In this document: positions 887 to 49,981 of the stretch, piece after piece | Layout of the letters: each line of letters begins with the position of its first letter | How positions within the stretch are numbered: the first letter of the stretch is position 1 | Source of the DNA: Candidatus Melainabacteria bacterium | GTDB lineage: Bacteria > Cyanobacteriota > Vampirovibrionia > LMEP-6097 | Reading direction: 5' to 3' | Assembly: GCA_028817775.1 (NCBI GenBank) | Contig: JAPPOW010000230.1 | Span: 1 to 57,221 of the forward strand | DNA: 57,221 nucleotides | The notes under the pieces: generated by a model | Told to the model about the DNA's origin: nothing | What the model saw: only the letters and a program-made list of their open reading frames with translations | Database searches by the model: none | Program-made: the position numbers and the translations under genes

Positions 887-1285
887 ATGATTCAAGGAAG
901 AAGAAGCTTGCAGCCTTTGAGCAAGCCTATTACTAGAGAGAGTCTCCGAAGCGACCCACAAACTGCGCGAGCAATGGACGAATCAGATCTCCGCTTGAAA
1001 GCCGGTGAGGGGAATCTTCGTATGGATGAAAATGGTGACTGGGTTGAAAACCGTGCTGATGATGGCACACCGGTACGTGTTCTCAAGCAGCGCTACGAAC
1101 AGAAAACAGGACCTCTCTCAGACCCTCCATTGATTGCTTACGTACCAAAAGCTTTAATCTTGGGGCTTGCATCAGTAGTTGGTCTTCCTTTGCTGGTGAA
1201 TGGCTGCGAGGAAGAAGCAGCTGAAACTACTGAACCCGTTAAGGCATTGCATCTAGCTGAAGCTACTACTGAACCTTCGAACTAA
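887..1285 (+). CDS. Hypothetical small protein with one predicted TM helix
   Basis: ORF only. Charged N-half, hydrophobic stretch ALILGLASVVGLPLLV, acidic tail. No family recognised. The 3' end overlaps the convergent 1266..2771 gene by 20 nt. Confidence 0.4.
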   Translation: MIQGRRSLQPLSKPITRESLRSDPQTARAMDESDLRLKAGEGNLRMDENGDWVENRADDGTPVRVLKQRYEQKTGPLSDPPLIAYVPKALILGLASVVGLPLLVNGCEEEAAETTEPVKALHLAEATTEPSN

Positions 1286-2771
1286 AGAAAGTTTTATTAG
1301 CTGCAGCAGAGTCATGAGTTTTGCAAATCATATCTAGGTATTTGCTAAGTTCTGAATTGACTTGGGGCTTCAAGTCTGGATTGCTTCGTCTGGACGGGGG
1401 CTCCCTGTCATCACCATGGATACTAAGTTTTGGCACCCCTGAATCCTCGCAATGACGGTAAGCTATATAGCGAGCGAGGATTTGCATTTGTTCTTTGGCA
1501 CTCAAAAGTAGTTGCTTACTAGCAACAGTGCGGTATTGCTCATAGACATATTTGAGAGTATTGATGACATCTCCCCGATTAGCGCGCTTCCAGCTTTGAT
1601 CTGATTCTAGATAGAGATCTTGACCAGGCTCAGTGGCAACTAAGAAATCAGCGTCATTGGCTTGATTGACGGAGTCAATTTTTTCAAAACTGAGATAGTT
1701 CCAAGGGATGGCAATATCTGGATGTAAGTGCCAGCCATTGCGTAGAACTTCGTGCATGCTATTACTACCATCATGTCTGCCACTGGCACTACTCTCAGTT
1801 GCCAAACCAGACCAAGAACCGCCCTCCAGATTTAATAATGCTTCAGGTACTGCATCGTAATCACCAAGTAGATTAAAGATCACTCTTACTGCTTGTCCTG
1901 GACTTGCCGTAAACTCAATAGTTTCTCTATTTTGAGGCTGATAATCCTGCTTATGAGCAATGCTATCAATTAATTTTTGGTCGATAGTTATTGATCCACC
2001 TTGGCTGATACTCTGGTAGTTAGTAGCTGCAGCTAGCACTATGACCCAGCGTTCGTCTATTTTGACTTTGTAAATTGGTGAGACTAGAGTATCAGTATAG
2101 TCTTCAACCAAGTTGACTTCTGAAACTAGTTCATTATTTTTGTTGACTTGATAAATCTTGCCCTTGTTAAAACTTGCAGGGCGTTGCTGGAATTTAATCA
2201 CATCCCAGCCACTAAATCTATTGCGTCGGGCAGCTTTGAATGCAGTCTCAGGCATTACGGCAATTGCTAGATTGTTTTTTTTGATACGGTGAGCTTTGAT
2301 ACAGTCACTAAACAAGCCAATATTGCAAAGTCCTTCAGTGAAATGAAAATGATCTACTGCCACATCTTTATACAAAGCCTGGTGTAAATACTTTGCTGCC
2401 ATTGCTTCGATATAGGCGATACTAAAGTCACCAAGAAACTTTTGCCCCGCAATAGCTTGGCTGAGCAAGAGCCCTGAAGGACTAGCTTTGCAGCCCTGTT
2501 GTAATTTGTAGTCCTGCTTGCTATCGCAAAGGAAACCAGCTTCAGCAATTTGATTATTAGTCAGTAAATTACCAAGTTTGAACTTAACAGCTTTACCCTG
2601 CACTAGGACTTCCTGCACCTTTGCAAGTAAAGTCCTAGTACCTGGAAAATTTAGATAGTCAAATTCATCTTCAACTTGAACTGTTGGAGATTTTGCAGGA
2701 GTTGAAGCATCGAACAGCGAAGCCTGCTGTAAAAATTCAATTTCTGAATTTTGTTTAGAATCTATGCTCAC
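1266..2771 (-). CDS. Unassigned 501-aa protein, last gene of the MNIO RiPP operon
   Basis: Long uninterrupted ORF with a GTG start 7 nt after the DUF2063 stop codon (TGA-aatcagg-GTG). No signal peptide or TM segment. No motif I can assign (contains HFHFTEG and GWHLHPD). Confidence 0.6.
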   Translation of the reverse strand: MSIDSKQNSEIEFLQQASLFDASTPAKSPTVQVEDEFDYLNFPGTRTLLAKVQEVLVQGKAVKFKLGNLLTNNQIAEAGFLCDSKQDYKLQQGCKASPSGLLLSQAIAGQKFLGDFSIAYIEAMAAKYLHQALYKDVAVDHFHFTEGLCNIGLFSDCIKAHRIKKNNLAIAVMPETAFKAARRNRFSGWDVIKFQQRPASFNKGKIYQVNKNNELVSEVNLVEDYTDTLVSPIYKVKIDERWVIVLAAATNYQSISQGGSITIDQKLIDSIAHKQDYQPQNRETIEFTASPGQAVRVIFNLLGDYDAVPEALLNLEGGSWSGLATESSASGRHDGSNSMHEVLRNGWHLHPDIAIPWNYLSFEKIDSVNQANDADFLVATEPGQDLYLESDQSWKRANRGDVINTLKYVYEQYRTVASKQLLLSAKEQMQILARYIAYRHCEDSGVPKLSIHGDDREPPSRRSNPDLKPQVNSELSKYLDMICKTHDSAAANKTFFSSKVQ

Positions 2772-2778
2772 CCTGATT

Positions 2779-3492
2779 TCAGTCTATCAGGATATTGGCC
2801 TCTTGCAAATCACCAATTAGCTTCTCTAGGGCCGAAAGCTCGATTTTTAGGCCAAAATGGGCACAAAAACTTTGATGAATTTCTTCTAATCCTTTGCCTG
2901 AGCCTATGGCCTCGATGACAAATAAGGTGGTATTGGACAGAACGAAGCTGCGGTTCTTGAGACTTTCATGATCACGATAGAAGAACACAATCTCGCTTTC
3001 TTCCTCAATATCAGTCTGGCGCAGACTTTCAATATCATCCTCTGTTGTTTTGAGATATTCAATGACTTGTGTTACAGGGTATGAGAACTTCTCAATTTTA
3101 TGAACCGGAGTTAATTTAGAACTTGCTGCTAGATCAGGACTATTGTGGATTAAAACCTCTGTCCACTCATAACGGGCTAGATCACTTAGGAAATTAGGAA
3201 AGTTCTCAGCAAGATCTTCTTCTGAAAGTAATTTATAGAAATCAGCAGCCAGTCTATTGTAGATTGCTGATTTGCTCGGGTAATTATTTTGATAGTGTCG
3301 CATCAAATCATCCCAATCTTCGCCAATAATCTTGCGGCTCAAGGGATAGATGTTCTGCATCAACGAACTAAGGCTACTGACTACCAGTGAGTAATAAACG
3401 CTCAGTTCGCTCTTGGTTTGTTCTGGCAGCTCAGTCGGCTGACCCAGCATAAATTTTTGAATCTCTTGTTGTAGTTGATAGACTTGGTTCAT
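2779..3492 (-). CDS. DUF2063-family partner protein of the MNIO enzyme (HvfC/BufC/MbnC-like role)
   Basis: N-terminal pattern LSVYYSLVVSSLSSLMQNIYPLSRKIIGEDWDDLMRHYQNNYPSKSAIYNRLAADFYKLL...LSDLARYEWTEV matches the DUF2063 signature (vYrnn..l..aL...yP....G..w..l...Y....PS...l...g..F..fL....dlA..Ew). Start taken at ATG 3492 (MNQVYQ), 5 nt after the MNIO stop. The ORF-track ATG at 3522 lies inside a family-A repeat. Confidence 0.75.
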   Translation of the reverse strand: MNQVYQLQQEIQKFMLGQPTELPEQTKSELSVYYSLVVSSLSSLMQNIYPLSRKIIGEDWDDLMRHYQNNYPSKSAIYNRLAADFYKLLSEEDLAENFPNFLSDLARYEWTEVLIHNSPDLAASSKLTPVHKIEKFSYPVTQVIEYLKTTEDDIESLRQTDIEEESEIVFFYRDHESLKNRSFVLSNTTLFVIEAIGSGKGLEEIHQSFCAHFGLKIELSALEKLIGDLQEANILID

Positions 3493-3497
3493 GATTT

Positions 3498-4409
3498 TTA
3501 TACCTGGATTGCCGCGTCGCATGCGCTCCTCGCAACGACGCCTTGTATTTGTTTTAATTCTTCGACTAATTCTTTAAGCTCAGGGAAATTAGAATCGCGC
3601 TCAAGCAAGATAGCATTGACTTCAGTTCTTGCAAGTAGTTGCCGCAAAATTTCATAAACTTCATCGATGATTCCTTCACCATGAGTATCTAGGATTTCAA
3701 TTTTGTGACCGGTGTGAGAGTGGTAACCATTGAGGTGACCAGCTATATGTACTTGCACAACCCGTTCTAGCATTAGTGAATCAAGAAACTCTACTGGCTG
3801 GTAATTGCCATGATTAGTGGCGTTGACATAGATATTATTGACGTCAAGCAACATACCACAATCTGCCTGCTCCAAAATTGAATTGATAAACTGAGCTTCA
3901 CTCATTTCTGCATCGATAATCGTTGAATAGAAACTTGGATTCTCAACTAAAAATGGAAGTTGGAATTCATCTTGTAAAAATTTAACGTTATCGGCAATGA
4001 TATCCACTGACTCCTGAATCATTGGCACTGGAATTAGGTTCTGTAAGTAGTATTCACCAACACGAGTGCAGGAAATATGGTCAGAGAACCAAGGTGCTTC
4101 GATTTGCTGGAATAGTTCTTTGCAGCCATCAATCAGGTAAGGATCAAAACAGGGCTTACCGGGAGTCTCGGGCGCTGTGCCTATACTAAGATTCACGCCA
4201 TGAGGAATCAATGCTACGCCACTATCAAGTACTTCTTGAAACTGCTGGGCTTTGCGTCCGCCTAAGTAGATATAGTTTTCTGGAACGATTTCTAACCATT
4301 CGATGAGACCGGTATTATTCTCACTGCTATAAAAATCTAAAGTTTCTTGAGTTAGAGCTCGGCGTAATCCTAATCCTAGACCTGCCTTGCTTAGTTTGTT
4401 TTTGTCCAT
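3498..4409 (-). CDS. DUF692 / MNIO (multinuclear non-heme iron oxidative) enzyme
   Basis: GLGLRR...IEWLEIVPENY...IPHGVNLSIG...WFSDHIS...LPFLVENPSFY...LLDVNNIYVNATNHG...VQVHIAGH is the TIM-barrel DUF692 pattern (MbnB/TglH/HvfB/BufB family). Start ATG 4409 has AGGA 8 nt upstream. The alternative ATG at 4418 sits inside a family-A repeat. Confidence 0.85.
   Translation of the reverse strand: MDKNKLSKAGLGLGLRRALTQETLDFYSSENNTGLIEWLEIVPENYIYLGGRKAQQFQEVLDSGVALIPHGVNLSIGTAPETPGKPCFDPYLIDGCKELFQQIEAPWFSDHISCTRVGEYYLQNLIPVPMIQESVDIIADNVKFLQDEFQLPFLVENPSFYSTIIDAEMSEAQFINSILEQADCGMLLDVNNIYVNATNHGNYQPVEFLDSLMLERVVQVHIAGHLNGYHSHTGHKIEILDTHGEGIIDEVYEILRQLLARTEVNAILLERDSNFPELKELVEELKQIQGVVARSACDAAIQV
3506..3539 (-). 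repeat. Family-A hairpin element, TTGC/GCAA stem variant (copy A10), forming the last ~12 codons of the MNIO gene
   Basis: Minus-strand read GTC-GTTGC-GAGGAGCGCATGCGACGCG-GCAAT-CC has the same architecture as the other family-A copies. It is translated as ...GVVARSACDAAIQ. Confidence 0.7.
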
Positions 4410-4413
4410 CACT

Positions 4414-4495
4414 GTCATCCTGAGCTGCGTAGCAGCGTCAGGATCCCATTATCGCACACAGGAGATCCTGACGTCACTTCGTTCCTCAGGATGAC
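4414..4495. repeat. Inverted dimer of family-A hairpin elements (A1 4414-4447 forward, A2 4461-4495 reverse)
   Basis: GTCATCCTGAGCTGCGTAGCAGCGTCAGGATCCC, a 13-nt spacer, then GGAGATCCTGACGTCACTTCGTTCCTCAGGATGAC. The same tail-to-tail dimer layout recurs at 52597-52693. Confidence 0.85.
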
Positions 4496-4497
4496 AT

Positions 4498-4524
4498 AAA
4501 AAAAGCCCCGGCAGAGCCAGGGCT
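4498..4524 (-). terminator. Intrinsic terminator/attenuator just downstream of the RiPP precursor gene
   Basis: Minus-strand read AGCCCTGGC-TCT-GCCGGGGCT followed by TTTTTTT. It lies between the precursor stop (4552) and the MNIO start. Confidence 0.65.
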
Positions 4525-4551
4525 TTATAATCAAATTAAGTAAGTCAATTA

Positions 4552-4809
4552 CTACTTAACGTGCTCTCCGCATTTGCCTTCGCCGCACTTGTGCTCACCA
4601 CATTCGTGTTCACCGCACTCATGCTCTCCGCATTTGCCTTCGCCACATTTGTGATCGCCACCACTAATAAGTAGTGAAGAAGAGCTAGTCTCACTAATAC
4701 TGAAAATTGTTTCAGCATTAACATCGATTTCTGGAGCAGTAATTGCACCAGCGTTTAATGCTGTAGCAAGGCCTAATGCTAATGCAGCAGCTTTAACTTT
4801 CTTTTTCAT
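4552..4809 (-). CDS. RiPP precursor: Sec signal peptide plus six (K/E)CGE(G/H) pentapeptide repeats (oxazolin/bufferin EGKCG-like class)
   Basis: ATG 4809 is preceded by AAGGAG. The 85-aa product is MKKKVKAAALALGLATALNAGA|ITAPE...SGGD-HKCGEGKCGEH-ECGEHECGE-HKCGEGKCGEH-VK. It sits immediately upstream of MNIO+DUF2063. The ORF-track start at 4866 adds an implausible CCC-containing extension. Confidence 0.85.
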   Translation of the reverse strand: MKKKVKAAALALGLATALNAGAITAPEIDVNAETIFSISETSSSSLLISGGDHKCGEGKCGEHECGEHECGEHKCGEGKCGEHVK

Positions 4810-4848
4810 CTGTTGTAATCTCCTTTGTTTGTCCGAACAACAGCAGAA

Positions 4849-4887
4849 ATTATATACTTTAATCAAGAAATGACACCTAATTTCTTG
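4849..4887. promoter_or_regulatory. Candidate promoter (-10 TATAAT on the minus strand at 4849-4854) overlapped by an 8-8-8 palindrome CAAGAAAT-N8-ATTTCTTG (4864-4887), in the divergent precursor/porin intergenic region
   Basis: Read directly. Position is appropriate for the precursor promoter and for an operator shared with the divergent gene at 4945. No experimental support. Confidence 0.3.
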
Positions 4888-4944
4888 GCATTAATTTGAC
4901 CAAGATAAAAGACAAGTCTTTTGCTATCGCAAGGGAATAAAACA

Positions 4945-6129
4945 GTGGTGGGCAAAAAGTTTTGTTTATTAATAGCTTTGCTTTGTTTGACTAGTCAAAC
5001 TGTAATGGCGATTCAATTTAAGGATGGAGATCTTGAAGCTGGCAAAGTCATTAATCTTTCTCAGCTTTTGGATAAATCAGAATTACATTTCGACACAATT
5101 TTTAGTAACGATTGGACCGGTGGCAGAGCGGGTGGCAACACCAACCCACATCGAGCATTTATTGATTATAGAGTCGAAGGACACTTGCCTCTCTATAATT
5201 TAGCTGGCAATCGAGGACGTTTGATCACTCGAGTACAAGGGCTGGGTTTCGTTGATGAGAATATAGATGATTTTGTTGAGGATCCCTTGCTTGATATTCC
5301 TGAATTGTTTTGGCAAAACGATAAACAACTTGGTGATAATGATTTGAGATTTGTCTTTGGTAAGTTTGCCAATAGAAGGTTCTTTAACAAGGATGAAATT
5401 AATCCTGATCCATTTGATATTGGGGAGATGCGTTTCTCTGGTGCTCTTGCTAATAGCTTAAATTTATTCAATTCAATCAATGAGTTCAGAGATTCTGATT
5501 TGCGCTTCTCTGGAAGTCGTCAAGCTAGTGGTTCTTATGGTTTCAATTTTGCAATCAAAAATCAAGCTGAGCAAGGTTTATTCAGCCGCTGGGGTTTCCA
5601 GCAAGCATTGGCTGTTAGTCAACTGGATGATTTCAAGTCTAACTTTTATGGAATTTCTGAACTTAATAAAGATTGGGGCAGGCAAAAACCAGGGCGCTTG
5701 AGTATGGGCTTGGTCTACGCTAATGATGCGGTATTTCGTTTGGCAAATAATGATGAGAATAGTTACTTGTTCTATTCTTCATTGGTACAAAAACTAACAG
5801 ATAGACTCAAGTTTTATTTCCGCTATGGTACTTTGTTTAGAAATTTAAATTCTGGTGCTAGTAACAATAATGAATATAGATTAGGTTTCTACTATAAGTG
5901 GACTGACAAAATTGCTACTCACAATTGGCTTGGTTACTTTGATAATGATGTAGCACTAGCTGAGGAGGATGAGCGCTTCCACTGGGTTAATGTGCTGACT
6001 TATAAATTCAATAAAAATTTCTTTGCTAATTTTGCTGCGGTCTTTAGGTTTAATCAAGGCAATTCAGCAGCTACTGGCGCTAGTGACAATAACTATACTC
6101 TGGCTACTCAGTTACGGGTCTTCATGTAA
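4945..6129 (+). CDS. Putative outer-membrane beta-barrel (porin-like) protein
   Basis: Signal peptide VGKKFCLLIALLCLTSQTVMA. Abundant alternating aromatic/polar segments (FYFRYGTLF, YRLGFYYKW, WVNVLTYKF). C-terminus YTLATQLRVFM resembles a beta-signal. Family (possibly OprB-like) not confirmed. Start is uncertain (TTG 4921, GTG 4945 or 4948). Confidence 0.5.
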   Translation: MVGKKFCLLIALLCLTSQTVMAIQFKDGDLEAGKVINLSQLLDKSELHFDTIFSNDWTGGRAGGNTNPHRAFIDYRVEGHLPLYNLAGNRGRLITRVQGLGFVDENIDDFVEDPLLDIPELFWQNDKQLGDNDLRFVFGKFANRRFFNKDEINPDPFDIGEMRFSGALANSLNLFNSINEFRDSDLRFSGSRQASGSYGFNFAIKNQAEQGLFSRWGFQQALAVSQLDDFKSNFYGISELNKDWGRQKPGRLSMGLVYANDAVFRLANNDENSYLFYSSLVQKLTDRLKFYFRYGTLFRNLNSGASNNNEYRLGFYYKWTDKIATHNWLGYFDNDVALAEEDERFHWVNVLTYKFNKNFFANFAAVFRFNQGNSAATGASDNNYTLATQLRVFM

Positions 6130-6846: not shown

Positions 6847-8169
6847 CTACATTCCTAACATTTCTTCTATATACTGCAGTTCTTCTTCAGTATATCCAAG
6901 CAAGGCATCAATAATTTCATTGAGTTGTGAGTTTTTGTAATCAGTTTTGTTACGAACTTGTTTCTTGGCTTGTTCTAGCAAATCTTGAGTATCTAAGTAA
7001 AGTGCTTCTGCTTCTTCAAAATCAGCAAAGTCACCTTCATCAAGTTCTAGACCACCTTCACTAAAACGTTTGCAAGCAAGAACAATCTTTTGGTAAACAT
7101 CGACATCTTCATCGGTACCAATTTTCTTTTCTTTCTCGAAATAGCCAATGGCTTCATCCATATTGTTCTTGACTTTGACCCATGGATCATCCTCGAGTGA
7201 CTTAAGACTCTTGCGAACAATAAGCAAATAATCTGACTCTTGATCAGAGAGATTTAGTGCTTGTGAATTTTCCTTGGTGAGTTCTTCCTCTGGTTGAGCT
7301 GCCAAAGTTTCTACTGGAGCATCTTCTAGAGCTGGTGCTCCAGGGATTGGCTCCGCTTCGTGTTCTTCAACTTTGTGCTCGCTATGACTTTCTTCAGCAG
7401 CATGTTCTTCTTCAGCAACTGGCTTGAATTTCTCTTCTTCTAGTTCAACTACTGGTGCCTTGCCACCACCAAGAACTTGGTTGAGAAAGACAGTTACTTC
7501 ATCAGTAGTTTTGTGTTCTGTATGTTCAGCTTCCTCTGTGTGACTTGTTTCTTCATGATGAGTACTAATTTCATGTCCATGGGCTTCATGACTGGTGTGA
7601 ACTGTAGAACTCGTCACAGTTTCAGTGTGGATAGAACTTGCCCCATGAGCGGTATGAGTTTGTACTGGAGGCTGAGAAACTTTGTGCTCAGTTTTGACTT
7701 GAACTTGTGGCTCGCGTTTGTGCACTATTGGAGCAGGTGCTGGATGTACTGGCTCTGGCTTATGAACTTCTTCGTGCCTCGGTTCTTCTTTCTTGGGATG
7801 AGTTTCCAGGACTCGTGGTGCCCGGTCCTGATGATGAGCCTGTGCATGGTGAGTTGTTTCATGAGCTTCAGGAGCGTGATGATGTTCTTCTACCACTGCT
7901 GCTGGTGGTGTATCATGCACAGTCTCAGTTTTATGTTCTATTGATTCTGGAACAAGTACTGGCGCTGCTTCTACCGGAGCTTGCACTGCTTCTTGTGGAA
8001 TAAAAGGCTGCTTAGTCACTGGGGCAGCTTTGCGTTGCTGGTAGTTTGCATGACGAGCGCGGGCTCGCTGCAGTAATTCTTGCAATCTGGCGTTATCCTC
8101 ACCAAGAGCACTAACGCTAGCCGGAAACGCGAGCAAAGAAATTAGAGCTAAGCTGATCTTTTTGGACAT
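6847..8169 (-). CDS. Secreted His/Glu/Pro-rich low-complexity protein with an acidic helical C-terminal domain
   Basis: Signal peptide MSKKISLALISLLAFPASVSA. Long tracts such as HHHAPEAHETTHHAQAHHQDR and HTSHEAHGHEISTHHEETSHTEEAEHTEHK. No family recognised. Two plus-strand ORFs in the same interval are compositional mirrors. Confidence 0.6.
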   Translation of the reverse strand: MSKKISLALISLLAFPASVSALGEDNARLQELLQRARARHANYQQRKAAPVTKQPFIPQEAVQAPVEAAPVLVPESIEHKTETVHDTPPAAVVEEHHHAPEAHETTHHAQAHHQDRAPRVLETHPKKEEPRHEEVHKPEPVHPAPAPIVHKREPQVQVKTEHKVSQPPVQTHTAHGASSIHTETVTSSTVHTSHEAHGHEISTHHEETSHTEEAEHTEHKTTDEVTVFLNQVLGGGKAPVVELEEEKFKPVAEEEHAAEESHSEHKVEEHEAEPIPGAPALEDAPVETLAAQPEEELTKENSQALNLSDQESDYLLIVRKSLKSLEDDPWVKVKNNMDEAIGYFEKEKKIGTDEDVDVYQKIVLACKRFSEGGLELDEGDFADFEEAEALYLDTQDLLEQAKKQVRNKTDYKNSQLNEIIDALLGYTEEELQYIEEMLGM

Positions 8170-23537: not shown

Positions 23538-23978
23538 ATGAACCCCAAATTTGCCCCAAAAGTCATGGCTTATTTACTCATTTTGCGCTGGACTTTATCG
23601 CTTATTTTCTTTGTTATGGGGGCACCAAAACTCTTCGATGCTAATTTTGGGGCAAGTGCAGATATTTACTTCGCTAGTTTGCGTGACGATATCATTCTTT
23701 CGCCTTATACCGGCTTCTTTAATAAGGTAGTGATTCCTAATGCTTTCATCTTTGCAAGTTTAGTGAAGTATGCAGAGCTTGCAATCGCTGGAGCCTTTTT
23801 TATTGGATTCCCTATGCGCTTAGCTGTTTTTGCAGCGACTTTCTTGCATATCAATTATATTTGCATTGCTAGTTTCCCGAGCTTACTTTATTTGAATGTT
23901 CTAATGATAGTTTGTGAATGGGTTTGCCTTGCTGCAGTGGAAGCGTCAGTGAATAATACTACTCCAGTTGCCAAATGA
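23538..23978 (+). CDS. DoxX-like small integral membrane protein
   Basis: Four hydrophobic segments. LRWTLSLIFFVMGAPKL and YAELAIAGAFFIGFPMRLA resemble the DoxX pattern. The stop overlaps the next gene's ATG (ATGA). Confidence 0.4.
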   Translation: MNPKFAPKVMAYLLILRWTLSLIFFVMGAPKLFDANFGASADIYFASLRDDIILSPYTGFFNKVVIPNAFIFASLVKYAELAIAGAFFIGFPMRLAVFAATFLHINYICIASFPSLLYLNVLMIVCEWVCLAAVEASVNNTTPVAK

Positions 23979-47291: not shown

Positions 47292-49205
47292 CTAGTTAAT
47301 TTGGAGGGGAATACGTGCCAAAATTGCCCCGCAACCTAGAGCTAGAAGCCAGGAGCTGAGCCAGATTGCCATCGCAGATTTGAAGTTTTGTTCTTTGATC
47401 ATGACGGCCACAGTAGCGATACATGGCACGAATAAAGTAAGCACCGTGCAGGCTGTAACCAGCTGGCTGGCGCTCATTGGGATATCCATCAAACCAAAGG
47501 CACCAAAATCTCGGCGTACCATACCCAAAATAAAGCTAATTGCTACTTCTTTAGGTAGCAAGAGTACCTGGCTGATAACAGGTTCACTTATTTCTACTAT
47601 CCAGCTTAGTAGCCCAGTAACTTGCAGGAAACTCACTACGGCAGCAGCTATGAAGAAGGCTGGAGTAGCCTCGTCAAGAAATATCTTTGATCTAACTATA
47701 GTTTTGGAGAAAATATTGCTCAGCCTTGGAATTCTCAGTGGTGGAATATCAGAGATAAACTGCCCACAATCACCTGGCAAGACTTTATTTAAGATGCTAC
47801 CGGTTGCAATGAAGACAATAGTGAGAGTACCAGCCCAAATGAGCCATGGAGTGATGCCACCAATATTAGAGAGTAAGCCTTGAATTACTCCTAATTGAGC
47901 CGAGCAGGGGATGGTTAAACCAAGCAATGCCATGGTGATTAGTTTTTCTTTTTTGTTATTGAGCAGGCGGGTGGTTACTGTTGCCATGGTGACACAGCCG
48001 CCACCAAGAATAAGTGGGATGATAGCTCTACCATTCATGCCTAATTTAGAAAGAATGCCATCTACTAGTACAGCTAGGCGCGGTAGGTAGCCGCTATCTT
48101 CAAGCATGGCTAACCCAAAGTAGAAACCTAAAACTAGTGGCATCAATAAACCATATAAGTAAGTGATTGTTAAAGTAAGTAGACCGTAGTCACCAGCAAG
48201 CATTGTGCCAATAGCAGCACTAGGATTGTCAAAGAGTAAATTGCCACTTGGCTCTTTAATGACAGGCAAGATTTGGCTTACTAGTTTGGTAATTAATGGA
48301 TTAAAGTGAGCATTGAAGACTGAGTTTTCGAGAAGATCAACCACTGTGCCAGCTACAAAAATTCCAAGAAACTGAAACAAGAAAGTATAGAGAATAACGA
48401 TTGCTGCAATTGAACCAATAACTGGGTTGAGTAGTAATTTACCGATCAGGGTACGTTTAGAAAATTTGCTTTGACTAACTACTTTAGCGACTAAATCATT
48501 AACTTGCTCACGGCGGATTTGATAAATATCTTCGCGGGCTTTATCACTTGAGTTTTCAGCAGCAAGCAGAGCTTCAAATCTAGTTGGCATCTCATCGTAG
48601 TATTGAGTAATTTGAGCGTCTATCTCTGCTGAGATCGTGCCTACTTTAAACTGTGCTAGTTTTGCTTTTTTGTTTTGTACTGCGTTGAGGAGAGCTTGTT
48701 TTAATTCAGCTAAACCTTCGCCATCAATAGCAACCGCTTCAATAATGTCTAAACCTAGTTCTTGAGAGAGTTTCTTTGTATCAATCTCAACTTTACGGAT
48801 GCGCGCCTCATCGCACTGATTGAGAACAATTAGCATTGGTTTACCCAGGTCAGCTAATTGCTTGGTCAAGAAGAGATCCCGGCTGAGGCTGATACTTGAG
48901 ACTACATTGATAATAAGGTTGGCTGAATCTAAGCAGTCGCGGGTGGCAATTTCTTCATCATTGAGAGTGGAGATACCATAGACTCCTGGGCTATCAACTA
49001 ATTTAAGTTTGTAATCCTCAAGTCCAAAATCTCTAGCTTCAGTATCACTGACACTAAGATCAGCAGAACTAATTTCAATAGTGGTACCAGGATAGTTGCT
49101 GACATCAACATAGACACCAGTAAGGTAATTAAAGATGACAGACTTACCCACATTGGGGTTACCGACTAGAGCTATATTGATGGTTTTAGTTTTTAGCTCT
49201 GGCAT
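47292..49205 (-). CDS. feoB: Ferrous iron transporter B
   Basis: N-terminal G-domain IALVGNPNVGKSVIFNYLTG, DSPGVY, NQCD, followed by a polytopic membrane domain. Confidence 0.92.
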   Translation of the reverse strand: MPELKTKTINIALVGNPNVGKSVIFNYLTGVYVDVSNYPGTTIEISSADLSVSDTEARDFGLEDYKLKLVDSPGVYGISTLNDEEIATRDCLDSANLIINVVSSISLSRDLFLTKQLADLGKPMLIVLNQCDEARIRKVEIDTKKLSQELGLDIIEAVAIDGEGLAELKQALLNAVQNKKAKLAQFKVGTISAEIDAQITQYYDEMPTRFEALLAAENSSDKAREDIYQIRREQVNDLVAKVVSQSKFSKRTLIGKLLLNPVIGSIAAIVILYTFLFQFLGIFVAGTVVDLLENSVFNAHFNPLITKLVSQILPVIKEPSGNLLFDNPSAAIGTMLAGDYGLLTLTITYLYGLLMPLVLGFYFGLAMLEDSGYLPRLAVLVDGILSKLGMNGRAIIPLILGGGCVTMATVTTRLLNNKKEKLITMALLGLTIPCSAQLGVIQGLLSNIGGITPWLIWAGTLTIVFIATGSILNKVLPGDCGQFISDIPPLRIPRLSNIFSKTIVRSKIFLDEATPAFFIAAAVVSFLQVTGLLSWIVEISEPVISQVLLLPKEVAISFILGMVRRDFGAFGLMDIPMSASQLVTACTVLTLFVPCIATVAVMIKEQNFKSAMAIWLSSWLLALGCGAILARIPLQIN

Positions 49206-49414
49206 ATCTCCACCTTGATTTGCGCTGCTTGTTTATCCCCGATGGCTATTTCTTGTAGATCTTTGAGCAAGACTACTGGTCCAGCTGGGATTTTGGATGC
49301 GCAGCAAACCTGATCACCTTCACAAATCCCTATCCTTATAAGTTTTGCTTTGAGTTCACTTGGTAATTTGAGGATTTTGAGGCATTGGCCTGTTTTGGCT
49401 TGGTTTAACAACAT
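49193..49414 (-). CDS. feoA: FeoA-family ferrous iron transport protein A
   Basis: 73 aa, SH3-like FeoA pattern (LRIGICEGDQV...GPVVL...IAIGDKQAAQIKV). Overlaps the feoB start by 13 nt. Confidence 0.85.
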   Translation of the reverse strand: MLLNQAKTGQCLKILKLPSELKAKLIRIGICEGDQVCCASKIPAGPVVLLKDLQEIAIGDKQAAQIKVEICQS

Positions 49415-49418
49415 TTAT

Positions 49419-49435
49419 ATGAGAATTGTTCTCAT
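49419..49435. promoter_or_regulatory. Fur-box-like palindrome ATGAGAA-TTG-TTCTCAT, 5 bp upstream of feoA
   Basis: Perfect 7-3-7 inverted repeat. Read as TGAGAAT-T-GTTCTCA it matches the 7-1-7 Fur consensus TGATAAT-N-ATTATCA at 11 of 14 positions. Context is upstream of the iron-uptake operon. Confidence 0.5.
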
Positions 49436-49855
49436 TAAATATAGCACTTCCCCTTATCTTAGAGCATGGTTTAAATAATTCTTGCTTATCTTTAGTTTTG
49501 TAATTCAGCTGAGACATATAGTTGCTCTATTAGAAAAGTTTCTCCGAATATCAGACAAATTGCTTCCCATTCGGCGCAGCTGCTATCACAAAGTTATTGT
49601 TGTTTTGCTTTGCAAAACGAAAAGGCAACGTGAATCCGATATGAGAAGCAATTGTCTGAATTCTCCAAAACTTTTCTTAGACCCCAGCAGATTCTCTTTT
49701 CGCGAGTCTCAAGAAGCGGGCACAAAACAATTTCTCGGAGAAAACATTTGCAGGAAAATCAATACTAGCAAGATCGAAGATCTTGCCCATTTTCCGAAAC
49801 CGTTTTTCCGAAAATTCGTTTTGTGCTAAGCTTCGGACTGTTTCGCGATATGGTC

Positions 49856-49892
49856 GGAAGATCCTGACGTCGCAAAGCTCCTCAGGATGACC
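49856..49892 (-). repeat. Family-A hairpin element (A7)
   Basis: Reverse read: GGTCATCCTGAGGAGCTTTGCGACGTCAGGATCTTCC. Confidence 0.85.
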
Positions 49893-49981
49893 ATCAAAAT
49901 AAGCAAGAATTATCTAGGTTTTTAGCTGAAAACTAGATTTAATTAAAGCTTTATATAATTCGTCAAGACAAGCAAGCTAGA

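Follow-up and report, generated by a model that had tools for sequence, protein, structure and literature searches.

Oxazolin, the product of HvfA, HvfB and HvfC in nontypeable Haemophilus influenzae, carries six modified cysteines and binds one Cu(I) per cysteine pair (PMC11252979). Together with fontiphorin, which is made by the Fontimonas thermophila proteins FonA, FonB and FonC (ACS Chem Biol 2026, PMC13097082), it represents a family variously called HvfA, Buf_EGKCG or "Lys-Cys" captophorins; captophorin peptides bind copper, and their modification has been revised to 5-thiooxazole (PMC13097082, preprint PMC12668002; bioRxiv 10.64898/2026.07.17.739211). Published surveys place the roughly 2,000 Buf_EGKCG/oxazolin proteins for the most part in Pseudomonadota (PMC12452194), and Cyanobacteria are not mentioned in the taxonomic table of PMC13097082. 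In this study, we describe a cluster of the hvfABC type on contig JAPPOW010000230.1 (GenBank assembly GCA_028817775.1) of Candidatus Melainabacteria bacterium, a non-photosynthetic cyanobacterial relative and as such an unexpected host phylum for the family. The whole 57,221-nucleotide stretch, which spans the complete contig, is referred to as the window, and the gene of interest, located at positions 4552 to 4809 on the minus strand, is in all likelihood a genuine precursor of an oxazolin/fontiphorin-type peptide that would be exported and whose cysteines would be converted into copper-binding 5-thiooxazoles.

Like HvfA, the window precursor combines a Sec signal peptide with a domain of the NF050137 family and carries six Cys in xKCG pentads that form three pairs, and it is likewise encoded beside an MNIO and a DUF2063 partner. 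HvfA differs by having three spacer-separated AEGKCGEGKCG repeats, a His-free core, a DoxX gene and an N-terminal disulfide (C38/C43). The window peptide is instead an uninterrupted array of six pentads in which five His and two Glu-Cys sites occur; it lacks an N-terminal Cys, and its cluster is devoid of DoxX. Furthermore, the window MNIO is just 35% identical to HvfB, and its host is a Melainabacteria metagenome-assembled genome (MAG) and not a member of Pseudomonadota. Fontiphorin resembles the window locus in its minimal three-gene cluster without DoxX, its EGKCG pentads, an N-region F-x-x-x-[D/E]-L motif (SVFQASDL in FonA, IFSISET in the window) and an MNIO, FonB, with the same conserved Arg-Arg pair and catalytic Asp at 36% identity. 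Unlike the window peptide, FonA has seven Lys-Cys sites in three blocks and no His two residues before Cys (position -2), while the position of FonB Phe250 is taken by Ser in the window enzyme, as in each of the seven lineage enzymes, and FonBC performs poorly on Glu before Cys, of which the window core has two instances.

Two further groups are more distant. Bufferins (Buf1 with DUF2282, Buf2, and their enzymes BufB/BufC) also have Sec-exported precursors, an MNIO and a DUF2063 partner, and the characterised examples convert Cys to 5-thiooxazole and buffer periplasmic copper (PMC11626156; PMC12452194), but they form folded domains in which four or six Cys are conserved and pentad arrays are absent, and the window precursor does not match DUF2282. 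Methanobactins (MbnA/MbnB/MbnC) similarly bind Cu(I) through a Cys-derived heterocycle made by an MNIO, yet rely on a leader peptide in place of a Sec signal, on oxazolone/thioamide chemistry and on MbnC as partner.

Identification of an hvfABC-type cluster

The gene comprises 85 codons plus stop, and its minus-strand translation, MKKKVKAAALALGLATALNAGAITAPEIDVNAETIFSISETSSSSLLISGGDHKCGEGKCGEHECGEHECGEHKCGEGKCGEHVK, exactly matches the peptide quoted in an earlier, sequence-only reading of this DNA. An exact-sequence look-up retrieved it from the public record as MDD9899209.1, annotated "hypothetical protein OXU45_09460", and an identical peptide is present on 12 metagenome contigs. We place the start at the ATG at 4809 and not at the upstream TTG at 4866, because all homologues begin with MKK and because a ribosome-binding site, AAGGAG (4820 to 4825, minus strand, by direct sequence reading), lies 10 nt before it. 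Residues 1 to 22 (MKKKVKAAALALGLATALNAGA; 4744 to 4809, minus strand) form a predicted Sec signal peptide in place of a classical leader; by inspection and hydropathy, an n-region KKKVK is followed by the hydrophobic stretch AAALALGLATAL and then by A-G-A, after which the cut is predicted. The ALALG of the h-region is invariant across 11 homologues, and a Ser-rich region sits between the signal peptide and the core.

Residues 52 to 83 match the NCBIfam model NF050137 (HvfA family oxazolone/thioamide-modified metallophore of the type of peptides made on the ribosome and modified after translation (RiPP); KCGExKCG_twice domain) with 22.4 bits at a curated cut-off of 19.5. Because of this match and because the next two genes encode an MNIO and a DUF2063/HvfC protein, we class the cluster as hvfABC-type and as a member of the oxazolin/fontiphorin ("captophorin") family. 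The sequence-only reading had taken the product for a precursor with a signal peptide, related to the EGKCG peptides. This holds: The product is a RiPP precursor of EGKCG type, its signal peptide is of Sec type, and its gene adjoins the maturase genes, so that a functional annotation can be given to what was deposited as a "hypothetical protein". When the peptide was combined with 10 relatives into a profile, the search retrieved 570 proteins at E <= 1e-3, most of them short signal-peptide proteins with (E)GKCG arrays, with three low-complexity false positives among the best 150. No second KCG-type precursor was found in the window.

The HvfB/FonB-like MNIO (DUF692) maturase is encoded at 3498 to 4418 (minus strand) and has 306 amino acids from the ATG at 4418, or 303 from the annotated ATG at 4409 (MDD9899208.1, "DUF692 domain-containing protein"). 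It matches PF05114 with 261.7 bits and PDB entry 3BWW with E = 2e-48, and was compared with the FonB and HvfB sequences in the supplement of PMC13097082. Its metal-ligand and catalytic motifs are intact (H73, D113-H114, E159, D192/N195, H224/H228, D244-x-H246, E273-R-D275) and align with those of 3BWW, FonB and HvfB. The Arg-Arg pair (R15/R16 in FonB) and the catalytic Asp (D249 in FonB) are kept as well. The HvfC-like partner with its DUF2063 N-domain (MDD9899207.1, "putative DNA-binding domain-containing protein") is encoded at 2779 to 3522 (minus strand), in a gene that shares 25 nt with that of the MNIO. The protein matches PF09836 with 40.7 bits at a cut-off of 27.2 and is thus a DUF2063/HvfC (PME1) partner and not an MbnC, and a search of the PDB returned no sequence match for it.

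Several observations count against the oxazolin/fontiphorin-type reading or set the cluster apart from the characterised systems. The precursor scores 30.7 bits with the HvfA equivalog model NF050188 (cut-off 95), and the enzymes also stay below the equivalog cut-offs, with 237 versus 360 bits for HvfB (NF003818) and 69 versus 142 for HvfC (NF050145); we therefore regard the locus as a distant family member and not as an orthologue of the H. influenzae system. Not every target Cys lies in Lys-Cys-Gly, since four of the six are in K-C-G while C65 and C70 are in E-C-G, so that two of six Cys follow a Glu, a context that FonBC handles poorly. No DoxX gene occurs in the cluster, neither in the window nor in six related loci, and a Pfam scan of 30 window proteins (about 40 kb annotated) turned up neither copper-homeostasis nor metal-regulator genes. 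DoxX is a frequent but not universal component of captophorin clusters. In common with bufferins, the MNIO also matches the BufB model, though below its cut-off (221.6 versus 310 bits). With the MbnB model TIGR04159 it scores just 45 bits (cut-off 325), and the precursor has no Pfam match at E <= 0.01, including DUF2282 (PF10048), which separates the locus from methanobactins and from bufferin precursors. As descriptions of this family, of its enzymes and of its chemistry go back to 2024, no new category is opened: The gene is a new, His-rich, unannotated member of a known family and not a new kind of system.

We also noted a weak DoxX-family match (28 bits) at 23538 to 23978 (plus strand), directly upstream of an SBP_bac_5 gene, a pairing that is repeated in another locus of our set (L035); lying 19 kb away, this gene is probably unrelated to the hvf cluster.

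Repeat layout of the core and selection on the peptide

The core (residues 52 to 85, DHKCGEGKCGEHECGEHECGEHKCGEGKCGEHVK; 4555 to 4656, minus strand) contains six Cys-Gly sites with a period of 5, and the translation confirms the exact five-residue spacing of the Cys (residues 55, 60, 65, 70, 75 and 80) that had been described before. Written as xxCGE pentads it reads HK-GK-HE-HE-HK-GK (+H), and Tandem Repeats Finder detects periodicities of 15 and 30 nt in the gene. The array can be divided into a module A1, HKCGEGKCGEH, with two Lys-Cys-Gly sites and a His cap (4621 to 4653, minus strand), a module B, ECGEHECGE, with two His-flanked Glu-Cys-Gly sites that form the atypical part of the core (4594 to 4620, minus strand), and a module A2, which repeats HKCGEGKCGEH (4561 to 4593, minus strand) and is present only in the window and in relatives of the type of L018, its closest orthologue. 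The sequence-only reading had called this layout mirror-organised, a description that holds for the A-B-A partition only. We rejected a residue-level palindrome, as mirror-image identity is found at just 11 of 31 residues; the true symmetry is a direct repeat of 11 residues at an offset of 20 (11/11 matches) inside the periodic array. When the six pentads were ordered at random, the first 11 residues equaled the last 11 in 4.6% of trials. Similarly, five His are indeed present (residues 53, 63, 68, 73 and 83), but their proposed alternation with Cys is not strict, since two Cys lie between H53 and H63 and another two between H73 and H83.

Modules A1 and A2 differ at 3 of 33 nucleotides, all of them synonymous, in agreement with what had been noted earlier. 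A stronger comparison comes from L018, whose precursor is 91% and whose MNIO is 80% identical to those of the window. Across the whole gene, 29 codon differences are synonymous and 6 non-synonymous, whereas within the core all 12 differing codons are synonymous and none is non-synonymous (crude P ~5e-10, assuming that 17% of single-nucleotide changes are synonymous). The core peptide is therefore under strong purifying selection, and it is the peptide and not the DNA that is selected. The earlier argument for such selection, and against a recent DNA duplication, thus stands on firmer ground with L018 than with the three changes between A1 and A2.

Related loci and conserved synteny

Precursor, MNIO and HvfC genes are adjacent in six related loci (L018, L022, L025, L026, L036 and L039). 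The lineage relatives, two of which are labelled "Cyanobacteria bacterium" in their source records, share a backbone of HD, creatininase, His-rich secreted protein, hisB, precursor, MNIO, HvfC and a protein of 480 to 550 amino acids. In all seven lineage loci (7/7, including the window), the core opens with [D/E]HKCGE, and its architecture diverges afterwards. The A-B-A arrangement, and with it the mirror layout, is confined to the window and L018, and the other lineage members are built differently: L036 has a 17-residue unit twice (DHKCGE-DHKCGE-GKCGx), L022, L026 and L025 have HKCG units separated by Lys- or Ala-rich spacers, and L039, although its MNIO is just 63% identical to that of the window, has A and B without a second A (DHKCGEGKCGEHECGEHECGE, then an acidic tail). 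The window, L018 and L039 all keep the HECGEHECGE block. The block is therefore old and maintained, and the second A module is a later C-terminal addition. The terminal His-Val-Lys is missing even in L018, whose stop codon we confirmed on four contigs.

Upstream of the core, family conservation highlights F36-S-I-S-E-T41 (4687 to 4704, minus strand) as an instance of an F-x-h-x-[E/D]-h motif. The strict motif is present in 80 of 155 family representatives and a looser version in 113 of 155, at a near-constant distance to the first Cys-Gly (median 20 residues, interquartile range 19 to 22). E40 is invariant in the 11 nearest homologues, and the motif recurs in FonA (SVFQASDL). We infer that it could be the recognition element for the HvfC-like partner.

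One locus with the same gene order, L034 (5622 to 5849; JGI 3300075147, on a 600-kb contig), has neither MNIO nor HvfC. A small secreted open reading frame (ORF) at the place of the precursor has zero Cys and carries His in an acidic tail (DGEHYNHDDDEQNNHDDDDEV), and may be a degenerate or alternative metal-binding peptide. That the peptide has no Cys where the maturase is missing suggests, from this single case, that the Cys are tied to the enzyme; that His and acidic residues are kept without the maturase would, in the same single case, point to a role of their own. A scan of genome contigs with the MNIO returned only distant relatives (<=43% identity) with other precursor types, which are uninformative on the His.

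Two side observations concern the enzymes. L025 (5259 to 6989; ENA ERZ3430527) encodes a natural MNIO-HvfC fusion of 576 amino acids (PF05114 plus PF09836) that adjoins a 119-residue EHKCGEGKCG precursor; a like fusion was engineered for HvfBC in a 2026 preprint. A Candidatus Obscuribacterales MAG (L001, 7858 to 8031) contains a distant MNIO and partner pair (41% identity) without an EGKCG precursor, and a 57-residue ORF downstream that ends in ...GGNGSAAGCVPCLGRVDKP may belong to a different class of MNIO substrates.

Core histidines and Glu-Cys sites across the family

How unusual the His and Glu-Cys sites are was assessed with a census of 157 family representatives from the profile search. 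The residue two before Cys is Gly in 716 cases and His in 114, whereas His stands directly before Cys in only 11. At least one HxCG is present in 46 of the 157 representatives, so that the His are not a unique feature of the window peptide. They are distributed very unevenly, however: His occupies position -2 at 105 of 442 Cys that begin a run (24%) but at 8 of 543 run-internal Cys (1.5%), and it follows Asp or Glu in 109 of 113 cases. The run-internal His come from just five proteins, among them P0001, which represents the 90% cluster of the window peptide, and P0014 (the L039 precursor). The residue before Cys-Gly is Lys at 934 of 1035 sites and Glu at 12 of 1035 (~1%), and HECG occurs in 5 of the 157 proteins. 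Six or more Cys at a spacing of 5 are found in 10 members, two of which are false positives, and the His density of the window core ranks 7th of about 157 with a median of zero.

None of the three characterised precursors (HvfA, FonA and NgoA) has His at -2 of Cys, and the papers and supplement text consulted on HvfA, Buf_EGKCG and captophorins contain no discussion of core His and no HKCG or HECG strings, in line with the earlier statement that mixed His-plus-heterocycle metal sites are not known to have been described for EGKCG peptides. As judged from the census, the "cap" His is a common yet undiscussed feature of the family, present two residues before the first Cys in about a quarter of runs, while internal His and Glu-Cys together make up a rare sub-variant. 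Conservation of the individual His is mixed: H53 is invariant in the 11 nearest homologues, H63 and H68 are common to L018 and L039, H73 is common to L018 only, and H83 is missing even in this closest relative.

On the side of the enzyme, the window MNIO and those of all six related loci read LERD-S-NFP, with the Ser (residue 276, counted from the ATG at 4418) at the position of FonB Phe250, where FonB, HvfB and 3BWW have ERD-F. In FonB, Phe250 lies beside the catalytic Asp249, contacts the residue before Cys and sets the tolerance there (PMC13097082). When the substrate positions of FonBC were scanned, a Glu ahead of Cys "severely impacted processing", whereas most substitutions two residues before Cys, the position of the His, were tolerated (PMC13097082 / preprint PMC12668002). 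The window core is thus a rare natural substrate, with internal His and with Glu before Cys in a context that the only enzyme tested so far handles badly, and the maturases show a lineage-wide Phe-to-Ser change at the known specificity position. A Ser at this position could relax selectivity and allow the local enzyme to accept Glu-Cys. Because lineage members with precursors that lack Glu-Cys carry the Ser too, we regard it as a lineage trait and not as proof of co-adaptation. The sub-variant and the Phe-to-Ser change nonetheless raise a concrete question about substrate selectivity and metal-site tuning in thiooxazole metallophores.

Proposed maturation and metal binding

Modification, export, copper binding and any role of the His are modelled here on the characterised relatives. 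The precursor would be made with its Sec signal peptide and be presented in the cytoplasm to the adjacent MNIO by the HvfC-like partner, probably through the conserved F-x-I-x-E motif about 20 residues ahead of the core. The MNIO would then turn the cysteines of Cys-Gly sites into 5-thiooxazoles with a mass change of -4 Da each. This mass shift and an absorbance near 305 nm are the marks of a 5-thiooxazole. After leaving via Sec and being cut after residue 22, the modified product would be an acidic periplasmic peptide of about 63 residues whose heterocycle pairs bind Cu(I); if it behaves like oxazolin, each peptide could hold as many as three Cu, at pairs 55/60, 65/70 and 75/80. The precursor-to-enzyme ratio would be set high by the terminator-like hairpin that follows the precursor gene. 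The heterocycle/thioamide modification expected in the sequence-only reading is now assigned as 5-thiooxazole and not as oxazolone/thioamide (PMC13097082; bioRxiv 10.64898/2026.07.17.739211). The His are placed two residues before Cys, with one capping every pair, two within the central pair and one at the C-terminus. A contribution to metal binding is plausible; most likely, they would act as auxiliary ligands or tuning residues of the Cys-pair sites.

What the His contribute to such a peptide admits other answers. They might not be ligands at all but serve recognition or register-setting by the maturase, as a "cap" on the first Cys of a run, or tune charge and pH, so that the metal chemistry would be that of His-free oxazolin. 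We hold this to be a tentative but real possibility, as the His are strongly position-specific (114 at -2 versus 11 at -1) and concentrated at run-initial Cys (105/442 versus 8/543) with an acidic residue before them in 109 of 113 cases, which is the pattern expected of a start-of-run signal, and as FonBC tolerates most substitutions at -2. It sits less well with L034, where maturase and Cys are gone altogether but His is kept among acidic residues (DGEHYNHDDDEQNNHDDDDEV), and with the characterised members, which are processed without such His. Conversely, the His, possibly together with two unmodified Glu-Cys cysteines, could be the true metal ligands and form mixed imidazole/thiooxazole sites or Cys2His(n) sites flanked by thiooxazoles, with a selectivity or redox behavior (e.g., for Cu(II), Zn or Ni) that would set them apart from oxazolin and fontiphorin, whose Cu(I) sites are all-thiooxazole, and with a co-adapted Ser maturase that accepts or skips Glu-Cys; we consider this rather doubtful. 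A related proposal, which strikes us as possible though unlikely, is partial modification: Cys 55, 60, 75 and 80 would become thiooxazoles while 65 and 70 stay thiols and form, with H63, H68 and H73, a Cys2His(2-3) site between the heterocycle sites, giving the mature product two chemically different metal sites. The severe effect of Glu before Cys on FonBC (PMC13097082 / PMC12668002) and the rarity of Glu ahead of Cys-Gly (12/1035 sites) would fit such a product, and HECGEHECGE is kept in three diverged genomes with MNIO identities down to 63% and so is selected as such. The Ser at the FonB Phe250 position in 7/7 lineage maturases argues in the other direction, because the local enzyme may accept Glu-Cys, although this argument is itself tempered by the presence of Ser where precursors have no Glu-Cys, without specific co-variation.

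More radical departures from the oxazolin/fontiphorin model would do away with the modification or with the gene itself. A peptide this rich in Cys, His and Glu could by composition alone bind Zn, Ni or Cu, and in the absence of a Pfam match one might see in it an unmodified, metallothionein-like periplasmic Cys/His metal buffer whose proximity to an MNIO is incidental. Yet MNIO and HvfC adjoin the precursor in every Cys-bearing lineage locus, the Cys are lost where the enzymes are absent, and the curated HvfA-family model matches the peptide; moreover, free thiols in the periplasm tend towards oxidation, and we find this scenario very improbable. That the ORF is spurious and merely reflects low-complexity DNA could be suspected from the label "uncharacterized low-complexity protein" that one source gives to the representative of its cluster, and from the low-complexity false positive P0012 that scored high in the profile search. 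The signal peptide and N-region are conserved in 11 homologues, however, the gene has a ribosome-binding site, a promoter-like site, a terminator-like hairpin and a constant place upstream of the maturase, and its core diverges by synonymous changes only, a substitution pattern that effectively refutes this suspicion and reduces its probability to almost nothing.

Expression signals and the spacer element

Upstream of the precursor gene, a sigma-70-like site (GTGTCA, a 16-nt spacer and TATAAT; 4849 to 4876, minus strand) agrees with the consensus at 10 of 12 positions; it is a consensus match only, and the number of such matches in the region equals the shuffle expectation. A candidate regulatory structure in the 5' untranslated region (CTGTTGT...ACAACAG around the ribosome-binding site) was rejected because its fold does not stand out from shuffles (z = -0.66), nor is it conserved in L036 or L039. 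Beginning 26 nt past the precursor stop, an intrinsic-terminator-like hairpin (4502 to 4526, minus strand) with an 11-bp stem containing 7 G-C pairs is followed by a T-run, and L018 has a different hairpin with a T-run in the same place. Such a hairpin behind a precursor gene commonly serves to obtain more precursor than enzyme, and here we infer that it would yield precursor transcript in excess while some transcription reads through into the maturase genes.

The spacer between precursor and maturase further contains a palindromic element of about 80 nt that resembles repetitive extragenic palindromes (REP-like; 4414 to 4495, minus strand), composed of a pair of inverted 30-nt units (CATCCTGAG-N12-GTCAGGATC) that form a stable hairpin. 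It spans the first ATG of the MNIO gene and the AGGA ahead of the second ATG, and might damp translation of the maturase. The fold of 4405 to 4560 has -71 kcal/mol with z = -8.1. Three copies of the 30-nt unit are present in the window compared to 0.03 expected, the third at 49860 to 49889, and the element is missing from the orthologous spacer of L018. An Rfam scan of the window returned one tRNA only.

Neighboring genes

Two flanking genes were considered as further parts of the cluster and rejected. A 501-residue protein (1266 to 2771, minus strand) is encoded 7 nt downstream of hvfC and neighbors it in several relatives, but homologues occur without MNIO or HvfC in L034, with the same synteny, and elsewhere in L035. 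It matches neither Pfam nor NCBIfam, and only 17 homologues were found, all from this lineage; 48 residues are invariant, among them those of an EGGSW motif. The AlphaFold model of the protein (pLDDT 77, pTM 0.80) has no fold match in the PDB, with a GH57 amylase as the best hit (E = 0.05, TM 0.29). The divergently transcribed gene at 4921 to 6129 (plus strand) encodes a 402-residue protein that we considered as a channel dedicated to export or uptake. The model of this protein is a 16-strand porin-like beta-barrel similar to OmpF/OprB (Foldseek, E ~1e-11). The protein has no Pfam or NCBIfam match and belongs to a porin family that is specific to Melainabacteria and numbers about 43 proteins. 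As a generic barrel whose homologues sit elsewhere in other genomes, including the L036 MAG, and which stands beside the precursor only in the window and its closest relatives, it was dismissed as a cluster component.

Other genes of the window may also relate to metals. A 440-residue secreted protein (6847 to 8169, minus strand) without a Pfam match has a long His-rich low-complexity region (HHHAPEAHETTHHAQAHHQ...) and keeps its place upstream of hisB in every relative, the maturase-less L034 among them; it may be a metal-binding periplasmic or surface protein. At 47292 to 49414 (minus strand), translation alone identifies feoB (637 amino acids) and a feoA-like gene (73 amino acids). The adjoining stretch of about 560 nt (49415 to 49981) contains no ORF of at least 120 amino acids and no Rfam match, and within it, 5 nt upstream of the feoA start, lies the perfect palindrome ATGAGAATTGTTCTCAT (49419 to 49435), which may be an operator for a metal regulator.

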